Of a stretch of DNA of 64,000 nt, positions 6,236-32,804 are shown one piece after another. This DNA comes from an uncultured Gemmatimonadales bacterium. GTDB lineage: Bacteria > Gemmatimonadota > Gemmatimonadetes > Gemmatimonadales > Gemmatimonadaceae. The stretch's first letter is position 1. The number at the start of each line of letters is the position of its first letter. The stretch lies in assembly GCA_963701965.1 (NCBI GenBank), contig OY969695.1, positions 2,528,001-2,592,000 on the forward strand. The letters run 5' to 3'. Under the pieces are notes generated by a model. It saw only the letters and a program-made list of their open reading frames with translations, made no database searches and was not told where the DNA came from. Made by a program: the position numbers and the translations under genes.

Positions 6236-7429
6236 CTACGCGTCGAGCTGACCGGCTTCGAGTCTGGCGAGCAGATCGAGCAGTCCGACGGCCTCCCACG
6301 ATTGATTGCGTTGCGAAGTCCCGAGGGGGGCGAGCACGCCGGCGTCTTGCAGCTGCCGCAACGCCTCGTAGATGGATGGCTTTGACCGGCTCGTTGCCGC
6401 GATGGCCACGGGCGCGGTGATCATGGGATGCGACGGGAGCACGTCAATGACCGCCCAAGCCGCCGCATCGGATCGCGGTGCCGACGGCGCATCCGCGAGT
6501 CGAGCGCGCCACCGGGCGCCGAGATCCTGTACGGCATTGAGGTAACTCAACGCCAGCCGCGACGCGCCGGTTGTCGCCGCGGCGAACTGCTCGATCCATT
6601 CGTTCGTCCCGTGCCCTCGGAATGCGGTAAGACCAGCGATATACCGGTCCCGCGCCGATGCCAAAAGCACGCTGATCGGTGGCACGTACGCGGGCGCCAC
6701 GCCGCGCCGGCGCAGGATCGCATGGATGAGGGCGCGGCCCGCGCGGCCATTGCCGTCGTGGAATGGGTGGATCGTCTCGAACTGCGCGTGGACCAAGGCT
6801 GCTTGGACGAGTGGTGGCAGCCGATCGTCGTTGATCGCGTCGCAGAGATCAGCCAGCAGCCTCGCGACGTGTTCGGGAGGCGGAGGGACGAAATCGGCCC
6901 CGCACGGGTTGTAGTCGTTGCCGCCGATCCAATTCTGCTCGGTCCGGATTTGCCCGGCAACGCGGGGCGATGCCTTGGCCATCAGCCGCTGATGGATCGC
7001 GATGATTTTGGTCACCGTGAAGGGCTCGGCAAGAGCCGCTTCATGAACTGCCAACTCCATGGCATCGATGTTCGCGAGGACTTCCTGCGCGGTGGGCCCG
7101 GCTTTCCTTCCCGCTTCCAGCCGGGCCTCCGCGCGCGCCAACTCGCGCACGCCGATTTGCATCCCCTCGATCTTCGAGGACGCGATGGACTCCGTACGGA
7201 GAAGCAACCGGGCGAGAGGGGTCAATGCCGGCCGCGCCTGATCGTTCAGGGTGCGAATGGCGGATTCAGCCTCGGATACCGCTCCGGCGACGTGAACGGG
7301 TATGTTCAGCGCCAAGTTCGAGAGCGGATCCGGGATAAAGGCCTCATAAGTACAAGCCTTCTTGTACTTTGCCGGCGCGTCGATCGCTGAGTCGTGTGGC
7401 CAGACCAACTTGACCTTGTGCCCCGCCAT
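6236..7429 (-). CDS. Fic family protein with N-terminal inhibitory motif and C-terminal HTH-like region
   Basis: Canonical HPFHDGNGRAGR; SSKIEG fits the (S/T)xxxE(G/N) inhibitory motif; RBS GGAGG upstream. Confidence 0.93.
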   Translation of the reverse strand: MAGHKVKLVWPHDSAIDAPAKYKKACTYEAFIPDPLSNLALNIPVHVAGAVSEAESAIRTLNDQARPALTPLARLLLRTESIASSKIEGMQIGVRELARAEARLEAGRKAGPTAQEVLANIDAMELAVHEAALAEPFTVTKIIAIHQRLMAKASPRVAGQIRTEQNWIGGNDYNPCGADFVPPPPEHVARLLADLCDAINDDRLPPLVQAALVHAQFETIHPFHDGNGRAGRALIHAILRRRGVAPAYVPPISVLLASARDRYIAGLTAFRGHGTNEWIEQFAAATTGASRLALSYLNAVQDLGARWRARLADAPSAPRSDAAAWAVIDVLPSHPMITAPVAIAATSRSKPSIYEALRQLQDAGVLAPLGTSQRNQSWEAVGLLDLLARLEAGQLDA

Positions 7430-26903: not shown

Positions 26904-28134
26904 ATGCCTCTCGCCAGCCGCCGTCAGACGGTAACCGCCTCCGTGGGCGGTGTCGCGATCGGATCCGCGCACCCGATCGTCGTGCAATCCATGACCAACA
27001 CCGATACTGCCAATGCCGCCGCCACCGCGGAACAGGTGGTCGCGCTCGCCCGGGCGGGCTCGCAGCTGGTGCGGATTACGGTCAACAACGAGGAGGCCGC
27101 GGCAGCGGTTTCCGGGATCGCCGAACGGGTCGCCGACCTCGGGGTCACCGTCCCGCTCGTCGGCGACTTCCACTACAACGGCCACCTGCTGCTCGCCAAA
27201 TACCCGGCCTGCGCCCGCGCGCTGGCCAAGTACCGCATCAACCCGGGCAACGTCGGCGGCAAACGCCGCGACGAGCACTTCCGGCAAATCGTCGAGATCG
27301 CGCTCGACAACGACAAACCGGTCCGGATCGGCGTGAACTGGGGATCCCTCGACCAGGATCTCCTCACCACCATGATGGATGAGAACGCCGGGCGCAGCGA
27401 GCCGCTCGAATGCGCGCGACGTCATGATCGAGGCCATGATCGAAAGCGGCCTCCGCTCGGCCACCCTCGCCGAATCCGTGGGCCTTGGCCACGACCGCAT
27501 CCTCATCTCGGCCAAGGTGAGCCTGGTGCCGGACCTGGTCGACGTCTACCGCCGTCTGGCGCCCCGCTGCGACTATCCGCTCCACTTGGGACTCACCGAG
27601 GCGGGACTGGGCACCAAAGGGGTGGTCGGATCCAGCGCGGCGCTCGCGATCCTGCTCGGCGAAGGCATCGGCGACACGATCCGGGTCTCCCTCACCCCGC
27701 GCCCGAACGGGGATCGCACCGAAGAGGTCATTGTCGCCCAACAGATCCTGCAGTCGCTCGGTCTCCGCAACTTCACGCCGCAAGTCACGGCGTGTCCGGG
27801 CTGCGGGCGCACGACATCGACCTTCTTTCAGCACATGGCCGAGGACATCCAAACCTATCTGCGCGAGCAAATGCCGGTGTGGCGGGAACAACATCCCGGG
27901 GTCGAGACCATGCGGGTCGCGGTCATGGGATGCGTGGTCAATGGCCCGGGCGAATCCAAGCATGCCAACATCGGCATCTCGCTCCCCGGCACGTTCGAGG
28001 AGCCGAAAGCCCCGGTCTACGTCGACGGCAAACTGGTCGTGACGCTGCGCGGCGAAGGCATCGTGCCGGAGTTTCTGGCCATTCTCGAGGACTACGTCGC
28101 CCGGACGTACCCTGCCGCGATGCCGGTCGCGTGA
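26904..28134 (+). CDS. ispG: HMBPP synthase (GcpE), 1-bp frameshift near 27409
   Basis: [26 protein letters not shown]; after the shift [34 protein letters not shown]. Confidence 0.93.
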
Positions 28135-29974: not shown

Positions 29975-30997
29975 ATGCGCGACCGCGTAATGCGCGCGAT
30001 GCTGCTGGAGGCGCCGCGCCAGCCGCTCCACATGGTCGAGTGGGCGGAGCCGACGCCCCTCGATGGGCAGATCCTGATCCACGTGCGGGCGTGCGGCGTC
30101 TGCCGGACGGATGTGCACATCGTCGACGGCGAGCTGCCGAACCCGGCGGTGCCTTTGATCATCGGCCACCAGATCGTAGGAACAGTCGCGGCCCGTGGCC
30201 CGGGCGCCGAGCGGTTCGAGATCGGGGCGCGGGTGGGCGTGCCGTGGCTGGGGTGGACGGACGAGACGTGCCGCTACTGCCGGAGCGGCCGCGAGAACCT
30301 GTGCCCGAATGCCCGCTTCACGGGCTACACGATCAATGGGGGCTACGCGGACGCGGTCACCGCCGATGAGCGCTATGCGGTCGCGATTCCCGACGACTTC
30401 ACGGACACGCAGGCGGCGCCGTTGCTGTGCGCGGGACTGATCGGATACCGCGCCTTGATGGCGGCGGGCGACGCGCGGCGGGTGGGCTTCTACGGGTTCG
30501 GGGCCTCGGCGCACCTCATCGCCCAGGTGGCGCGCTACCAGGGCCGCGAGGTGTACGCATTCACGCGCCCGGGCGATACGACGACGCAAGCGTTCGCCAA
30601 GAGTCTGGGCGCCGCGTGGGCGGGGGACTCGGACACGATGCCGCCTGAGCGGCTGGATGCGGCGATTCTGTTCGCGCCCGTGGGCGCGCTGGTGCCGACG
30701 GCGCTGCGCGCCGTGGACCGGGGCGGGGTGGTGGTGAGCGCGGGCATCCACATGTCGGCCATCCCGTCGTTTCCGTACGCGTTGCTGTGGGAGGAACGGT
30801 CGATCCGGTCGATCGCGAATCTCACGCGACGGGACGCCGAGGAATTCATGGCGCTGGCGCCGCGCGTGCCGGTGCGGCCAACGGTGACGTCGTACCCGCT
30901 GGCCCACGCCAACCGCGCGCTCGCCGATCTGCGCGCGGGCCGCGTGCGTGGTGCCGCGGTGCTCGTCATGTCCGGCACGCCGCGCTTGACACGGTGA
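29975..30997 (+). CDS. Zinc-dependent alcohol dehydrogenase family protein
   Basis: CGVCRTD.H, GHQIVG, C..C..G.ENLC, APLLCAG, GFGASAH. Confidence 0.92.
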   Translation: MRDRVMRAMLLEAPRQPLHMVEWAEPTPLDGQILIHVRACGVCRTDVHIVDGELPNPAVPLIIGHQIVGTVAARGPGAERFEIGARVGVPWLGWTDETCRYCRSGRENLCPNARFTGYTINGGYADAVTADERYAVAIPDDFTDTQAAPLLCAGLIGYRALMAAGDARRVGFYGFGASAHLIAQVARYQGREVYAFTRPGDTTTQAFAKSLGAAWAGDSDTMPPERLDAAILFAPVGALVPTALRAVDRGGVVVSAGIHMSAIPSFPYALLWEERSIRSIANLTRRDAEEFMALAPRVPVRPTVTSYPLAHANRALADLRAGRVRGAAVLVMSGTPRLTR

Positions 30998-31167
30998 GCG
31001 ACCGTACCTACCGGCAGCGCACCGGCATCCCCGCGTCCCTCGTGGTGGTGGGCTTGGCCGCGAACGATTTCACGATCGCGGATGCGGACGATCCCGCGAT
31101 GCTCGACGTCGTGGGTCTCGATACCACCACGCCGCAGATGATCGCGTCGTTCATGACCGACGGCTGA
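30994..31167 (+). pseudogene. C-terminal remnant (57 aa) of a Ro60/TROVE-vWA protein
   Basis: YRQRTGIPASLVVVGLAANDFTIADADDPAMLDVVGLDTTTPQMIASF matches the Ro60 C-terminal pattern YR..GI.A.L.V.G...N.FTIAD.DD..MLD..G.D...P..I..F (recognised by eye). Confidence 0.75.
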
Positions 31168-31248
31168 CAACGAAAGAGCCCCGGGAGAAATTCCCCGGGG
31201 CTCTTGTCGTTCGTATGGCGGTGGAACCGCCACGGCCGTCTCGCAAGC
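31168..31248 (-). ncRNA. Putative small RNA 1, antisense to the anticodon arm of the adjacent tRNA
   Basis: TTGACG-N16-TAAAAT promoter (31283-31256); 5' GCTTGCGAGACGGCCGTG is 17/18 complementary to tRNA C23-C40; internal hairpin; terminator hairpin 31174-31205. Confidence 0.7.
31174..31205. terminator. Probable bidirectional terminator
   Basis: AAGAGCCCCGGG...CCCGGGGCTCTT stem with short T-rich tails on both strands. Confidence 0.75.
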
Positions 31249-31321
31249 ACTTTCAATTTTATATGATTCCACGCCAGCGTCAACGCTGCGGATTACCGAA
31301 TTCTACGATTGCCAACTAGCG

Positions 31322-31405
31322 TACCCGGGACGGGATTCGAACCCGCACGCCCTTGCGGGCAGCCGCTTGCGAGACGGCTGTGTCTACCAGTTCCACCACC
31401 CGGGC
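31322..31405 (-). tRNA. Atypical tRNA: Leu-type (class II) body with Ala anticodon CGC
   Basis: GCCCGGG TG GTGG AACTGGTAG ACAC A GCCGT CTCGCAA GCGGC T GCCC GCAA GGGC GT GCGGG TTCGAAT CCCGT CCCGGGT A; full cloverleaf, long variable arm, A15/U48, A73, C3-G70; CCA not encoded. Confidence 0.92.
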
Positions 31406-31481
31406 ACCGTTCACGCTCGGCGAAAACTGGATGGTGCGACACAGATTCATCGCAAGTGCTGCGCGACTAGCTGGCGGCGAA

Positions 31482-31513
31482 CAATGTATCGACCCGATGC
31501 GATTCGCGCATCG
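31482..31513 (-). promoter_or_regulatory. Putative promoter of the tRNA precursor with palindrome over -35
   Basis: CGATGCG-N5-CGCATCG palindrome (31495-31513); ATGCGC-N17-TACATT. Confidence 0.65.
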
Positions 31514-31539
31514 TTGTATTTCGCACATCATCATGACCA

Positions 31540-31594
31540 ACAACGAAAGAGCCCCGAGGGACATCCCCCGGGGCTCCACAGCAGTCTCGCACGC
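31540..31594 (-). ncRNA. Putative small RNA 2, antisense to the anticodon arm of the adjacent tRNA
   Basis: 5' GCGTGCGAGACTGCTGTG is 16/18 complementary to tRNA C23-C40; followed directly by terminator 31549-31576, which shares a 17-nt tail with sRNA 1. Confidence 0.65.
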
Positions 31595-31599
31595 ACCCG

Positions 31600-31631
31600 C
31601 AATGTATCGGCACGATGCGATTCGCGCATCG
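31600..31631 (-). promoter_or_regulatory. Duplicate promoter block for sRNA 2
   Basis: 30/32 identical to 31482-31513. Confidence 0.65.
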
Positions 31632-31645
31632 GTGAATGTCACACG

Positions 31646-32269
31646 TCAGCGCGCGGCGACCTCGGCCCCGCGGCGTTCGACATCGTCCGTGGCGAGGCGC
31701 AGCTCGGCGAGGATCGGTGCGGTGAATCCGACCTCGGCGAGGCGATCGCTGAGCTCCCGGTAGTAGCGAATCGTGCCTTCGCGCCCGCGCAACGTCCGCG
31801 TCCAGATGGTCTCGGGATAGTCGGTGCGCCGGAGATCGGCGAGGATGGTGCCGATGCTGTGCAGCGCGTCGGCCGCGCCGACCCAGCGCGAGGCGTCAGT
31901 CGCGATGGCCAGTCGCGTGACGACATCGCGCTTGCGCTCATCGGGCGAGAGCTCGACACCGTTGTCATCCGTCCGCCGCTCCGTCACGGCCAGCGCGATC
32001 TCGAGAACGCTCTGGCCGAACTTGGCGCCGATCCAATCATCGAGCTCTTCGCGCGTGAATCCGTCGCGCACGGACCCTTCCACGACGCCATGCAGGATGC
32101 CGGCGAGCACCGTGTCCTCCGGCTGGCCATATCGCGTGAGAATGACCGCGACATTCGCCGGCCGGGTCAGATACGGCAGAGCCGTACCCTTCCGCACCTG
32201 GGTATCGTGATGTTTCGCCGCAAAGGCGAACGCGTGATTGATGCGGTCGGAGTAGCCGGAAATAGTCAA
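31646..32269 (-). CDS. HD-domain protein (RelA/SpoT-hydrolase / Mesh1-like) with degenerate metal site
   Basis: AFAFAAKHH..Q.RKGT..PYL.RP..VA, AGILHGVVEG (HD to HG, ED to EG), VTE; TTG start assumed. Confidence 0.75.
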   Translation of the reverse strand: MTISGYSDRINHAFAFAAKHHDTQVRKGTALPYLTRPANVAVILTRYGQPEDTVLAGILHGVVEGSVRDGFTREELDDWIGAKFGQSVLEIALAVTERRTDDNGVELSPDERKRDVVTRLAIATDASRWVGAADALHSIGTILADLRRTDYPETIWTRTLRGREGTIRYYRELSDRLAEVGFTAPILAELRLATDDVERRGAEVAAR

Positions 32270-32354
32270 CGCAGACGCCGAAACGAGAGGGCCAGGGTCG
32301 TCGAAGATCGCCAGACGCGAGCCCCCGAGCAAGGGCTTCGGCCCAGTTGGTCCG

Positions 32355-32804
32355 TTACACGTATTGATTCACGACCGCGATGAACCGGGCGTGGAGCGCG
32401 AGCAGCGCCGTGCCCTGCACTATTATTCCAAGTCCGGCGCCGATGCCCCCGGCCCGGCGTCCTTGCGTCAGCACGACGGTCGCCAGCACGAGCGTCAACC
32501 CCGCGGCGGCGAAGCCAATGTCCAGACCGCTCTCCAGCCACAGGAGACGGCTGAGGCGTGCGGCGGCGCCCAGATCGCGGAGTGCGAGCCCATGTAGACG
32601 GCGCGCCGCCACGGCCAGTTCGACGGCGCCCCAAGCAAGCGTTTGGAACGCGAACCCCTGCAAGAGCGGCGAATGCCCCTGACGCCGGCGCAATACCGCC
32701 AGCGACGCGAGGACCGCCGTCCCGGCGACGATGGAGATCAGCGCCCACAGCGCGAGTCGCACCAGGTGCGCGCGCTCAGCGAGGAGTAAGGTGTCCGCCC
32801 ACAT
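32355..32804 (-). CDS. Hypothetical membrane protein (about 4 TM)
   Basis: Four hydrophobic segments; W...GLD.G motif. Confidence 0.7.
   Translation of the reverse strand: MWADTLLLAERAHLVRLALWALISIVAGTAVLASLAVLRRRQGHSPLLQGFAFQTLAWGAVELAVAARRLHGLALRDLGAAARLSRLLWLESGLDIGFAAAGLTLVLATVVLTQGRRAGGIGAGLGIIVQGTALLALHARFIAVVNQYV

Follow-up and report, generated by a model that had tools for sequence, protein, structure and literature searches.

Type I toxin-antitoxin systems of the hok/sok kind bring together a self-masked primary transcript, a strong antisense promoter and a single-stranded 5' seed, and they occur as multicopy pairs scattered over the chromosome, without cross-reaction. For type VIII systems, TADB 3.0 names only two validated kinds, CreTA and SdsR-RyeA (PMC10767807). 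A separate body of work concerns tRNAs whose body and anticodon disagree; in E. coli these cause arrest or death (PMC5389517; PMC10404621). They include the allo-tRNAs, which have an 8/4 or 9/3 fold, a long D stem with a tetraloop, mostly Ser identity and G73 or U73, and for which a link to toxin-antitoxin loci has been suggested, with protein toxin-antitoxin genes located nearby (PMC5389517). They also include the Streptomyces tRNA-ProX group, which is characterised by a Pro body, A33, A34, A15-A48, an adjacent ProRSx and three anticodons, and is toxic in E. coli (PMC10404621, PMC11415595). For tRNA-Leu the determinants in E. coli are A73, A15-U48, G18G19 and A20a, the anticodon being dispensable (PMC9976931), and an engineered, anticodon-swapped E. 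coli tRNA-Leu inserts Leu (PMC12269064). What is to be made, then, of a cassette in which a Leu tRNA body, an Ala anticodon and a small RNA complementary to that anticodon are found together? The cassette described here is probably an RNA-only toxin-antitoxin pair, in which a mistranslating Leu-type tRNA is the toxin and an anticodon-matched antisense RNA is the antidote.

The window, that is the whole 64,000-nucleotide stretch analysed, carries the predicted toxin at 31322-31405 on the reverse strand (anticodon 31371-31369). ARAGORN calls it tRNA-Ala(CGC) at 31321-31405(-), and Rfam RF00005 matches 31322-31405(-) with 50.7 bits, covering the whole model. The sequence reads as a canonical 7/5 fold with acceptor pairs G1.U72, C2-G71, C3-G70 and C4-G69, together with A15/U48, G18G19, U20, A20a and A73, a 4 bp variable arm with a GCAA loop, an anticodon loop CU-CGC-AA and a U31.G39 wobble in the anticodon stem; the CCA end is not encoded. 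The bacterial tRNA-Leu identity set (A73, A15-U48, G18G19, A20a, long variable region) is complete, and the bacterial tRNA-Ala set (G3.U70, G2-C71, G4-C69, G20) is absent from this tRNA, where C3-G70, C2-G71, C4-G69 and U20 are found in its place. On the intact cloverleaf with Leu identity elements and anticodon CGC, which had been proposed in the earlier note, ARAGORN, the full-model Rfam match and the reading of the sequence agree, and the missing AlaRS element to which that note pointed is missing throughout the family, with G3.U70 in 0/77 copies and U48 in 77/77, neither of them imposed by the search. The closest normal tRNAs of the genome are the Leu isoacceptors, with alignment scores of 22-38, the scores for the others being 23 and 10 for Ser, 3 for Ala and 1 for Tyr. 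Since CGC is two changes away from any Leu anticodon, simple drift does not account for it. The genome has one leuS gene above the family cut-off, and the identity elements support the view that this Leu-bodied tRNA is not an AlaRS substrate and would need no new synthetase to place Leu at GCG.

Downstream on the same strand is a predicted antisense small RNA of ~85 nt (31165-31251(-)), the putative antitoxin, the ends of which are inferred from a promoter and a terminator. The sigma-70-type promoter (31256-31283(-); TTGACG, 16 nt, TAAAAT; 10/12 match) is, at 31283-31256(-), the sole promoter called in a scan of 30900-32400, where shuffled sequence gave a mean of 0.3. An unpaired 5' seed (31248-31231) is complementary to the anticodon loop and 5' stem of the CGC tRNA at 17/18 positions, and the hairpin that follows (~31233-31215) could, in the cofold, unzip onto the D arm. 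The predicted gain upon cofolding is -19.2 kcal/mol with the CGC Leu-body tRNA versus -5.9 kcal/mol with the normal tRNA-Ala(CGC). A terminator-like, GC-rich hairpin with a U-rich tail ends the cassette (31176-31203(-)); this copy is itself uncalled by the terminator scan but has 89% identity to the scan-called terminator hairpin at 31540-31576. The fold of 31160-31660(-) has z = -9.2 against 100 shuffles, and tracts with at least 11 Watson-Crick pairs occur in 0/232 shuffled downstream regions. T-box-like sensing was rejected by reasoning, from the duplex of 14-20+ bp and the invasion of the stem.

Upstream, the candidate tRNA promoter (31483-31512(-); ATGCGC, 17 nt, TACATT) is weak and non-consensus, was read from the sequence and is uncalled by the scan. 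Between it and the tRNA lies a predicted 5' leader (31406-31479(-), start site inferred) which, in a fold of 31308-31479, pairs through 31424-31442 with the D arm, through 31450-31459 with the anticodon loop and through 31466-31475 with a 3' trailer (31311-31320(-)) that closes a long precursor hairpin. With ~75 nt of leader paired in this way, the precursor is predicted to form a long rod. A leader-tRNA duplex with z < -2 is found in 44/62 family loci versus 5/18 true Leu tRNAs, and the mean anticodon pairing in the family folds is 0.93. One fold of the read-through transcript from the window, taken at full length, departs from this mean: its leader is paired with the antisense portion, which leaves the cloverleaf free. 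Such folds are indicative only, because energy models recover the T and D arms poorly even in true Leu tRNAs. A palindrome at 31496-31512 overlaps the candidate promoter, and the form GATGCG-N5-CGCATC has four sites in the genome: 31496-31512 and 31614-31630 of the window, G000:C1:1458577 and 3637982. Its place over both cassette promoters makes it a possible operator; the most enriched upstream 6-mer class is AACGATG (16/87 loci), and a regulon search with the palindrome and an AACGATG-based pattern (19 matches, mostly coding) found no regulator. The second of these promoters belongs to an orphan antisense unit (31548-31630(-), recognised from repeats and the terminator scan), composed of a duplicate of the tRNA promoter with its palindrome (31601-31630), a two-mismatch complement of the anticodon arm (31577-31594; 16/18) and a terminator (31548-31577). 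Among the genome's 62 ARAGORN calls the CGC tRNA is its best partner, with a cofold gain of only -6.3 kcal/mol. The unit resembles a tandem duplicate that has lost its tRNA, or else a spare antidote.

Is this arrangement peculiar to one locus? Relatives were gathered by similarity search, by a pattern search of GTDB (119 of ~140 loci) and from viral contigs (28), metagenomes (119 of ~350) and 401 genomes of the phylum; since the search patterns themselves required A15, G18G19 and A20a, these positions do not count as independent evidence from the family. The true-Leu control L026 came from G012, which is also one genome in the tallies, and no conclusion rests on G012. Among the matches listed, the first set gave 168 parsed tRNAs, including 67 non-Leu copies in the Gemmatimonadota group, 65 of which had enough flank. 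A duplex of at least 11 nt over the anticodon is present, among the matches listed, in 59/65 of these, in 0/26 true Leu tRNAs and in 7/72 non-Leu copies from other sources. By eye, the six failures of this strict test (6/65) comprise two with G.U at the anticodon, one with a degenerate or shifted partner, one with a non-matching partner and two with none nearby. The motif TTG-N16-18-NANNNT stands 2-8 nt before the duplex in 65/65 family loci as against 0/156 control positions, and A73, not imposed by the search, is found in 65/65 family copies; G51-C63 is found in 67/77.

The match at the anticodon itself was judged in a blind register, set from the promoter and from positions outside 34-36 so as to avoid circularity. 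Of 71 rows 68 had a promoter and 62 scored at least 8/11, and in 61 of these 62 the facing triplet is the exact anti-anticodon, the remaining one being off by one G.U; in 10,000 permutations the mean number of matches was 9.7 and the maximum 22. In a held-out test on 20 of the 36 C/T-pattern phylum matches, 16 were parsed and 15 were exact, including 12/12 new loci. The antisense RNAs are specific for their own tRNAs: duplex energies run from -34.8 kcal/mol for the cognate pair to -19.5 for the same anticodon at another locus and -14.2 for another anticodon, and the cognate antisense is the best partner in 59/65 family loci. The anticodon and the antisense also change together between near-identical cassettes, as in L003 (CGC) and L325 (CGG), which are 97% identical outside the arm, and in another pair that is 92% identical outside it. 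At the MutS/TonB locus the anticodons are CGC, CTC and CAC. A tree built with the anticodon arm removed (73 rows, 139 columns) is poorly resolved, and only its starred clades, which mix up to five anticodons, are used, because the 39 anticodon changes on the tree have no shuffle control. Kin are non-independent in these covariation counts, yet in the sequences compared the anticodon switches recur. Two loci (L143 and L130) have an anticodon one base off the antisense match with G.U pairing retained, and are possible snapshots of a specificity switch.

Totals over all collections were taken from tRNAs with at least six acceptor pairs, A73 and 120 nt of flank. Among the matches listed there are 208 non-Leu tRNAs, 85 of which have a same-strand partner targeted to the anticodon, covering 16 anticodons and with a promoter in 81; the rest, among the matches listed, divide into 10 with a same-strand variable-arm partner, 8 convergent, 1 with another match and 104 with no partner within 200 nt. 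The same partner criteria pass 0/24 Leu tRNAs and 0/232 shuffles. Partnered copies come from named Gemmatimonadota, Planctomycetota, Acidobacteriota and Saccharibacteria records and one Propionibacteriaceae bin, the anticodon-arm cassettes being mostly from Gemmatimonadota. In the phylum sample 24/401 genomes match the C/T-ending anticodon pattern, with 1-4 copies, and 11 matches fit the A/G-ending pattern, 6 of which are GCG copies with partners; all phylum matches are in the window's order, and the exact patterns miss variants (L037, L335, one Longimicrobiales record). The partnerless anticodons are mainly TGG, TTA, TCA, TGA, AGG and CTA, mostly from metagenome contigs, and the loci include L197-L200, L207, L180, L184 and L196 in addition to many metagenome loci; they are probably separate families, some of them stop suppressors. 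Other layouts were also observed. In L055, L070, L071, L082 and L121 (Planctomycetota and a viral contig) and in L037 the layout is tandem, but it is the variable arm, with the 3' anticodon stem, that the small RNA targets. In L080 and L085 (Saccharibacteria), L296 and L243 the layout is convergent, with the antisense coming from the opposite strand; in L080 and L085 it runs into a bidirectional terminator shared by the two RNAs, and the anticodon of these copies is ACC (Gly). Finally, L038 (~6590-6720, G001) has behind its first unit a second promoter-RNA-terminator unit, which matches the D arm and not the anticodon; it may be a broad antidote, one that could also touch normal Leu tRNAs.

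The host is likely to belong to Gemmatimonadota, judging by the named carriers of similar cassettes. Its genome (5.1 Mb, 67% GC) encodes six normal tRNAs for Leu (CAA twice, GAG, TAG, CAG, TAA), normal Ala tRNAs GGC, TGC and CGC, and three Leu-body tRNAs with foreign anticodons (CGC, CGC, GAC). The two further cassettes, with anticodons GAC and CGC, lie 9 kb apart at G000:C1:2795461-2795545(-) and 2804589-2804673(+) (L031), and each has its own distinct, non-cross-matching antisense tract behind its own promoter. When all 62 ARAGORN calls are compared, the best-pairing tRNA for every one of these antisense RNAs is its own. The top five codons in 2,252 long ORFs of the genome are GCG, GCC, GGC, CGC and GTC. 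Among the matches listed, the commonest partnered anticodons are CGC (21), GAC (13), GCG (12), GTC (7), CAC (5) and GGC (5), counts that form an uneven census because C/T-ending patterns were searched in GTDB and A/G-ending ones only in the phylum sample, viruses and metagenomes. The target codons rank 1-5 in host usage, and the cassette anticodons are biased to the commonest host codons.

How might such a cassette work? In the proposed mechanism the weak promoter would yield a precursor in which the leader masks the D arm and anticodon, slowing maturation, and the strong sigma-70 promoter would provide an excess of the short antisense RNA. The free 5' end of the antisense would invade the anticodon loop and unzip towards the D arm (~30 bp), and the resulting duplex would block decoding and probably trigger decay. 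Were the antisense supply to stop, because the cassette is lost or because phage or stress shuts off transcription, the tRNA, as the more stable of the two, would mature and be leucylated by the host's ordinary synthetase, with Leu then placed at GCG, proteome-wide Ala-to-Leu substitution and growth arrest. Release on host shut-off is a feature of type III toxin-antitoxin systems, to which this proposal is parallel. Swaps of the anticodon arm with compensating antisense changes would give rise to new specificities that do not cross-neutralise, several per genome. The substitution tolerated best in PMC10404621 was Ala-to-Pro, so Ala-to-Leu may be mild. Synthetases that read the anticodon could compete for the copies with Val, Thr, Arg and Gly anticodons (Table 1 of PMC9976931), the CGC copy being exempt. 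A broader reading, towards which the balance tips only slightly, is of a widespread class of RNA-only toxin-antitoxin systems whose toxin acts as a programmable code corrupter: a Leu chassis retargeted to the most-used codons, each version with its own anti-anticodon RNA, with at least 16 specificities reached by anticodon swapping, other layouts (variable-arm, convergent) in several phyla, and release on shut-off leading to abortive infection by mistranslation.

The neighbourhood of the cassettes bears on whether a toxin is the right description. Among the 85 nearest ORFs of 44 loci, which were mechanically picked and include some shadows, there is no conserved protein partner, and only 5/85 of these ORFs match PADLOC, one of them across most of its length. 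The plasmid and phage collections matched the tRNA body alone and at no point reached 80% coverage of the cassette; of the 28 pattern matches in viral contigs 12 passed the filters, 0 of which have an anticodon-targeted and 2 a variable-arm partner. Three soil sequencing runs gave only short pieces against the window, mostly of other tRNAs, and left the cassette uncovered. The usual addiction and defence contexts are weak, given the lack of a full cassette in plasmids and phages and the 5/85 PADLOC matches. For the same reasons, no full plasmid or phage match and rare defence neighbours, regulated adaptive mistranslation stays a live, if unlikely, rival: here the antisense would be a rheostat, stress would release sub-lethal, beneficial Leu misincorporation, and the cassette would be a domesticated device and not a toxin. 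The chromosomal intergenic sites with few defence or mobile neighbours are in keeping with such a role, as is the persistence of the cassette at orthologous loci within the genus; the palindrome over the tRNA promoter could serve as its operator, and mistranslation by tRNA-ProX has been linked in discussion to higher carbenicillin tolerance (PMC10404621). However, a useful substitution would be expected to be conserved, and the targets vary, and do so even within a single locus; they span codons for Ala, Val, Asp, Glu, Gly, Thr, Arg, Ser and Pro. The one-to-one antisense specificity, the orphan antisense copies and the patchy multicopy presence fit a toxin-immunity race better. Two observations from the surroundings stand apart from this question: priming of a reverse transcriptase by a tRNA half was rejected, there being no RT among the 85 neighbouring ORFs, and the gene at 26904-28134(+), which by its motifs looks like ispG, appears to change reading frame near 27380 and so to be split in two, perhaps through a frameshift or an error in the assembly.

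A more doubtful alternative retains the silencing antisense but has the tRNA act without inserting Leu, either by stalling ribosomes at common codons when uncharged or poorly delivered, by titrating LeuRS or EF-Tu, or as a decoy for tRNA-cutting enzymes. Some allo-tRNAs are inactive in translation yet lethal (PMC5389517), and the CGC tRNA has the wobbles G1.U72 and U31.G39, with non-Watson-Crick 31:39 pairs in 18/77 family copies. Against this, the 31:39 pair is not Watson-Crick in 5/24 true Leu tRNAs in the same count (four listed classes), A73, U48 and intact acceptor stems are retained along with the G51-C63 pair of most copies (67/77), and an anticodon-swapped tRNA-Leu is active in E. coli (PMC12269064).

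The position of the cassette in congeneric genomes, between the 3' end of Ro60 and rtcB, suggests another reading, namely that it is a component of a Ro60/RtcB RNA-repair locus, either Y-RNA-like or a substrate. At this one locus four genomes have three anticodons (the window CGC, G005 GGA, G001 and G004 GGC), and in G004 the antisense is shifted onto the variable arm. Joint loss is seen in G003, where a single deletion removed the leader, tRNA and antisense and kept the promoter and terminator; G002 has no match to the cassette in 12 kb. In the window Ro60 is a 57-codon 3'-end remnant (30994-31167(+); PF25045, E 2.8e-17), no TROVE domain was found in the genome, and G005 has a full-length Ro60 at the corresponding place with an rtcB that looks internally truncated. 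The HD_4 domain gene (31646-32332(-); PF13328) is a synteny marker outside the cassette, with orthologues in 5/5 congeneric genomes, none directly beside a cassette, and the window lacks the genes that separate it from the cassette in G005, the cassette being intact. The repair-locus reading is very improbable: Ro60 or RtcB flank only 1/44 of the neighbour-scanned loci, a separate YrlA-like RNA lies upstream of Ro60, and the two parts come apart, with a Ro60 remnant beside an intact cassette in the window and Ro60 without a cassette in G003. A Y RNA was also rejected directly, as there is no YrlA (RF02553) match on the cassette, the weak YrlA matches being upstream of Ro60 in L037 and L041.

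Finally, the genetic code was assessed from 74 protein alignments to relatives (some ORFs from G012), using only columns with differing codons. Across 1,246 GCG columns Ala makes up 47.7% and Leu 2.3%, compared with 51.1% Ala and 2.7% Leu for GCC and 69% Leu for CTG; GCG thus aligns like GCC and unlike CTG, and the code is not reassigned, GCG still being Ala. A sequencing error, a pseudogene in decay with an inverted duplication that arose by chance, or a change of GCG to Leu in the code is hardly credible, even though the window has no independent read cover and a two-base change from CAG is possible in principle, given the family-wide covariation and promoters, the three copies in the genome, the GCC-like alignment of GCG and the presence of a normal tRNA-Ala(CGC). 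The earlier note had likewise held an error to be unlikely, and the covariation, promoters and three copies bear it out. The three tracts complementary to the loop on which it relied are real (31450-31459 in the leader, 31231-31248 downstream and 31577-31594 in the upstream copy), but the role it gave them was too narrow, as one is the predicted antisense RNA and another the predicted masking leader. It is this that makes the tRNA probably off by default and not a constitutive recoder; GCG behaves as Ala in the genome, and Ala-to-Leu is only one of 16 anticodon states in the family.

With the toxin-antitoxin reading preferred, what would be its significance? If true, it would describe a toxin made of an ordinary-looking tRNA, silenced through its anticodon by a dedicated small RNA, and sense-codon mistranslation used as a switchable weapon or addiction device. 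It would account for bacteria keeping tRNA genes in which body and anticodon disagree, a question open for allo-tRNAs, and it would mean that genome annotation files cassette tRNAs as harmless Ala, Val or Asp tRNAs. The cassette spans ~350 nt in all, host enzymes suffice for it, and it would provide a natural, sequence-specific way of switching off engineered tRNAs that mistranslate or swap codes. On the sequence evidence this is a real family, far from chance, in which every mismatched tRNA is matched by an anti-anticodon RNA of its own; the literature searched, which included few subscription papers, gave no description of Leu-body tRNAs with matched antisense RNAs.

Among described mismatched tRNAs, the cassette shares with Streptomyces tRNA-ProX (tRNA-ProA/N/T) natural dual identity, switched anticodons and a patchy distribution (PMC10404621, PMC11415595). 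It differs in having a Leu body, U33, C34, A15-U48, 16 anticodons, a matched antisense RNA and no synthetase neighbour, ProRS being absent from the 7 window ORFs and 85 neighbouring ORFs; the word 'antisense' has 0 occurrences in either of the tRNA-ProX texts (PMC10404621, PMC11415595). With the allo-tRNAs it shares a long variable arm and diverse non-cognate anticodons, those of the allo-tRNAs giving lethal mistranslation in E. coli (PMC5389517), but its tRNA has the canonical 7/5 fold, a Leu-type D loop and A73. The excerpted text on allo-tRNAs describes no antisense partner, and irregular 7/5 tRNAs in its supplements could bear on novelty (PMC5389517). Engineered, anticodon-swapped tRNA-Leu resembles the proposed toxin in its Leu body, foreign anticodon and use of the host LeuRS, but is synthetic, made for freed Ser codons and has no natural silencing RNA (PMC12269064). 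The tRNA-LysT/tRNA-ArgU heterodimer is similar in that an RNA sequesters a tRNA by base pairing, but consists of two housekeeping tRNAs, with no dedicated small RNA and no mismatched identity (bioRxiv 10.64898/2026.09.02.748885).

Among toxin-antitoxin systems, the layout parallels type I (hok/sok) in its masking, antisense promoter, seed and non-cross-reacting copies, but type I makes a toxic peptide and targets an mRNA, whereas the cassette is without a peptide and targets a tRNA. As in type VIII (CreTA, SdsR-RyeA), both partners are RNA and their genes lie side by side, and at the level of sequence the adjacency and matching of that type are seen in the promoter, covarying complement and terminator. 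CreT sequesters a tRNA and CreA works via CRISPR-Cas, whereas in the cassette the predicted toxin is the tRNA itself, and no Cas families are among the Pfam or PADLOC matches of the 85 nearest ORFs. SdsR and RyeA are on opposite strands, whereas the cassette is tandem on the same strand in the window and 95 loci and convergent in 8 others. Unlike either of these, the predicted antitoxin would pair directly with the anticodon arm of the toxin, its promoter standing in tandem on the same strand. Should the two RNAs prove to be toxin and antitoxin, the cassette would formally fall under type VIII, with a mechanism unlike that of the two validated members.
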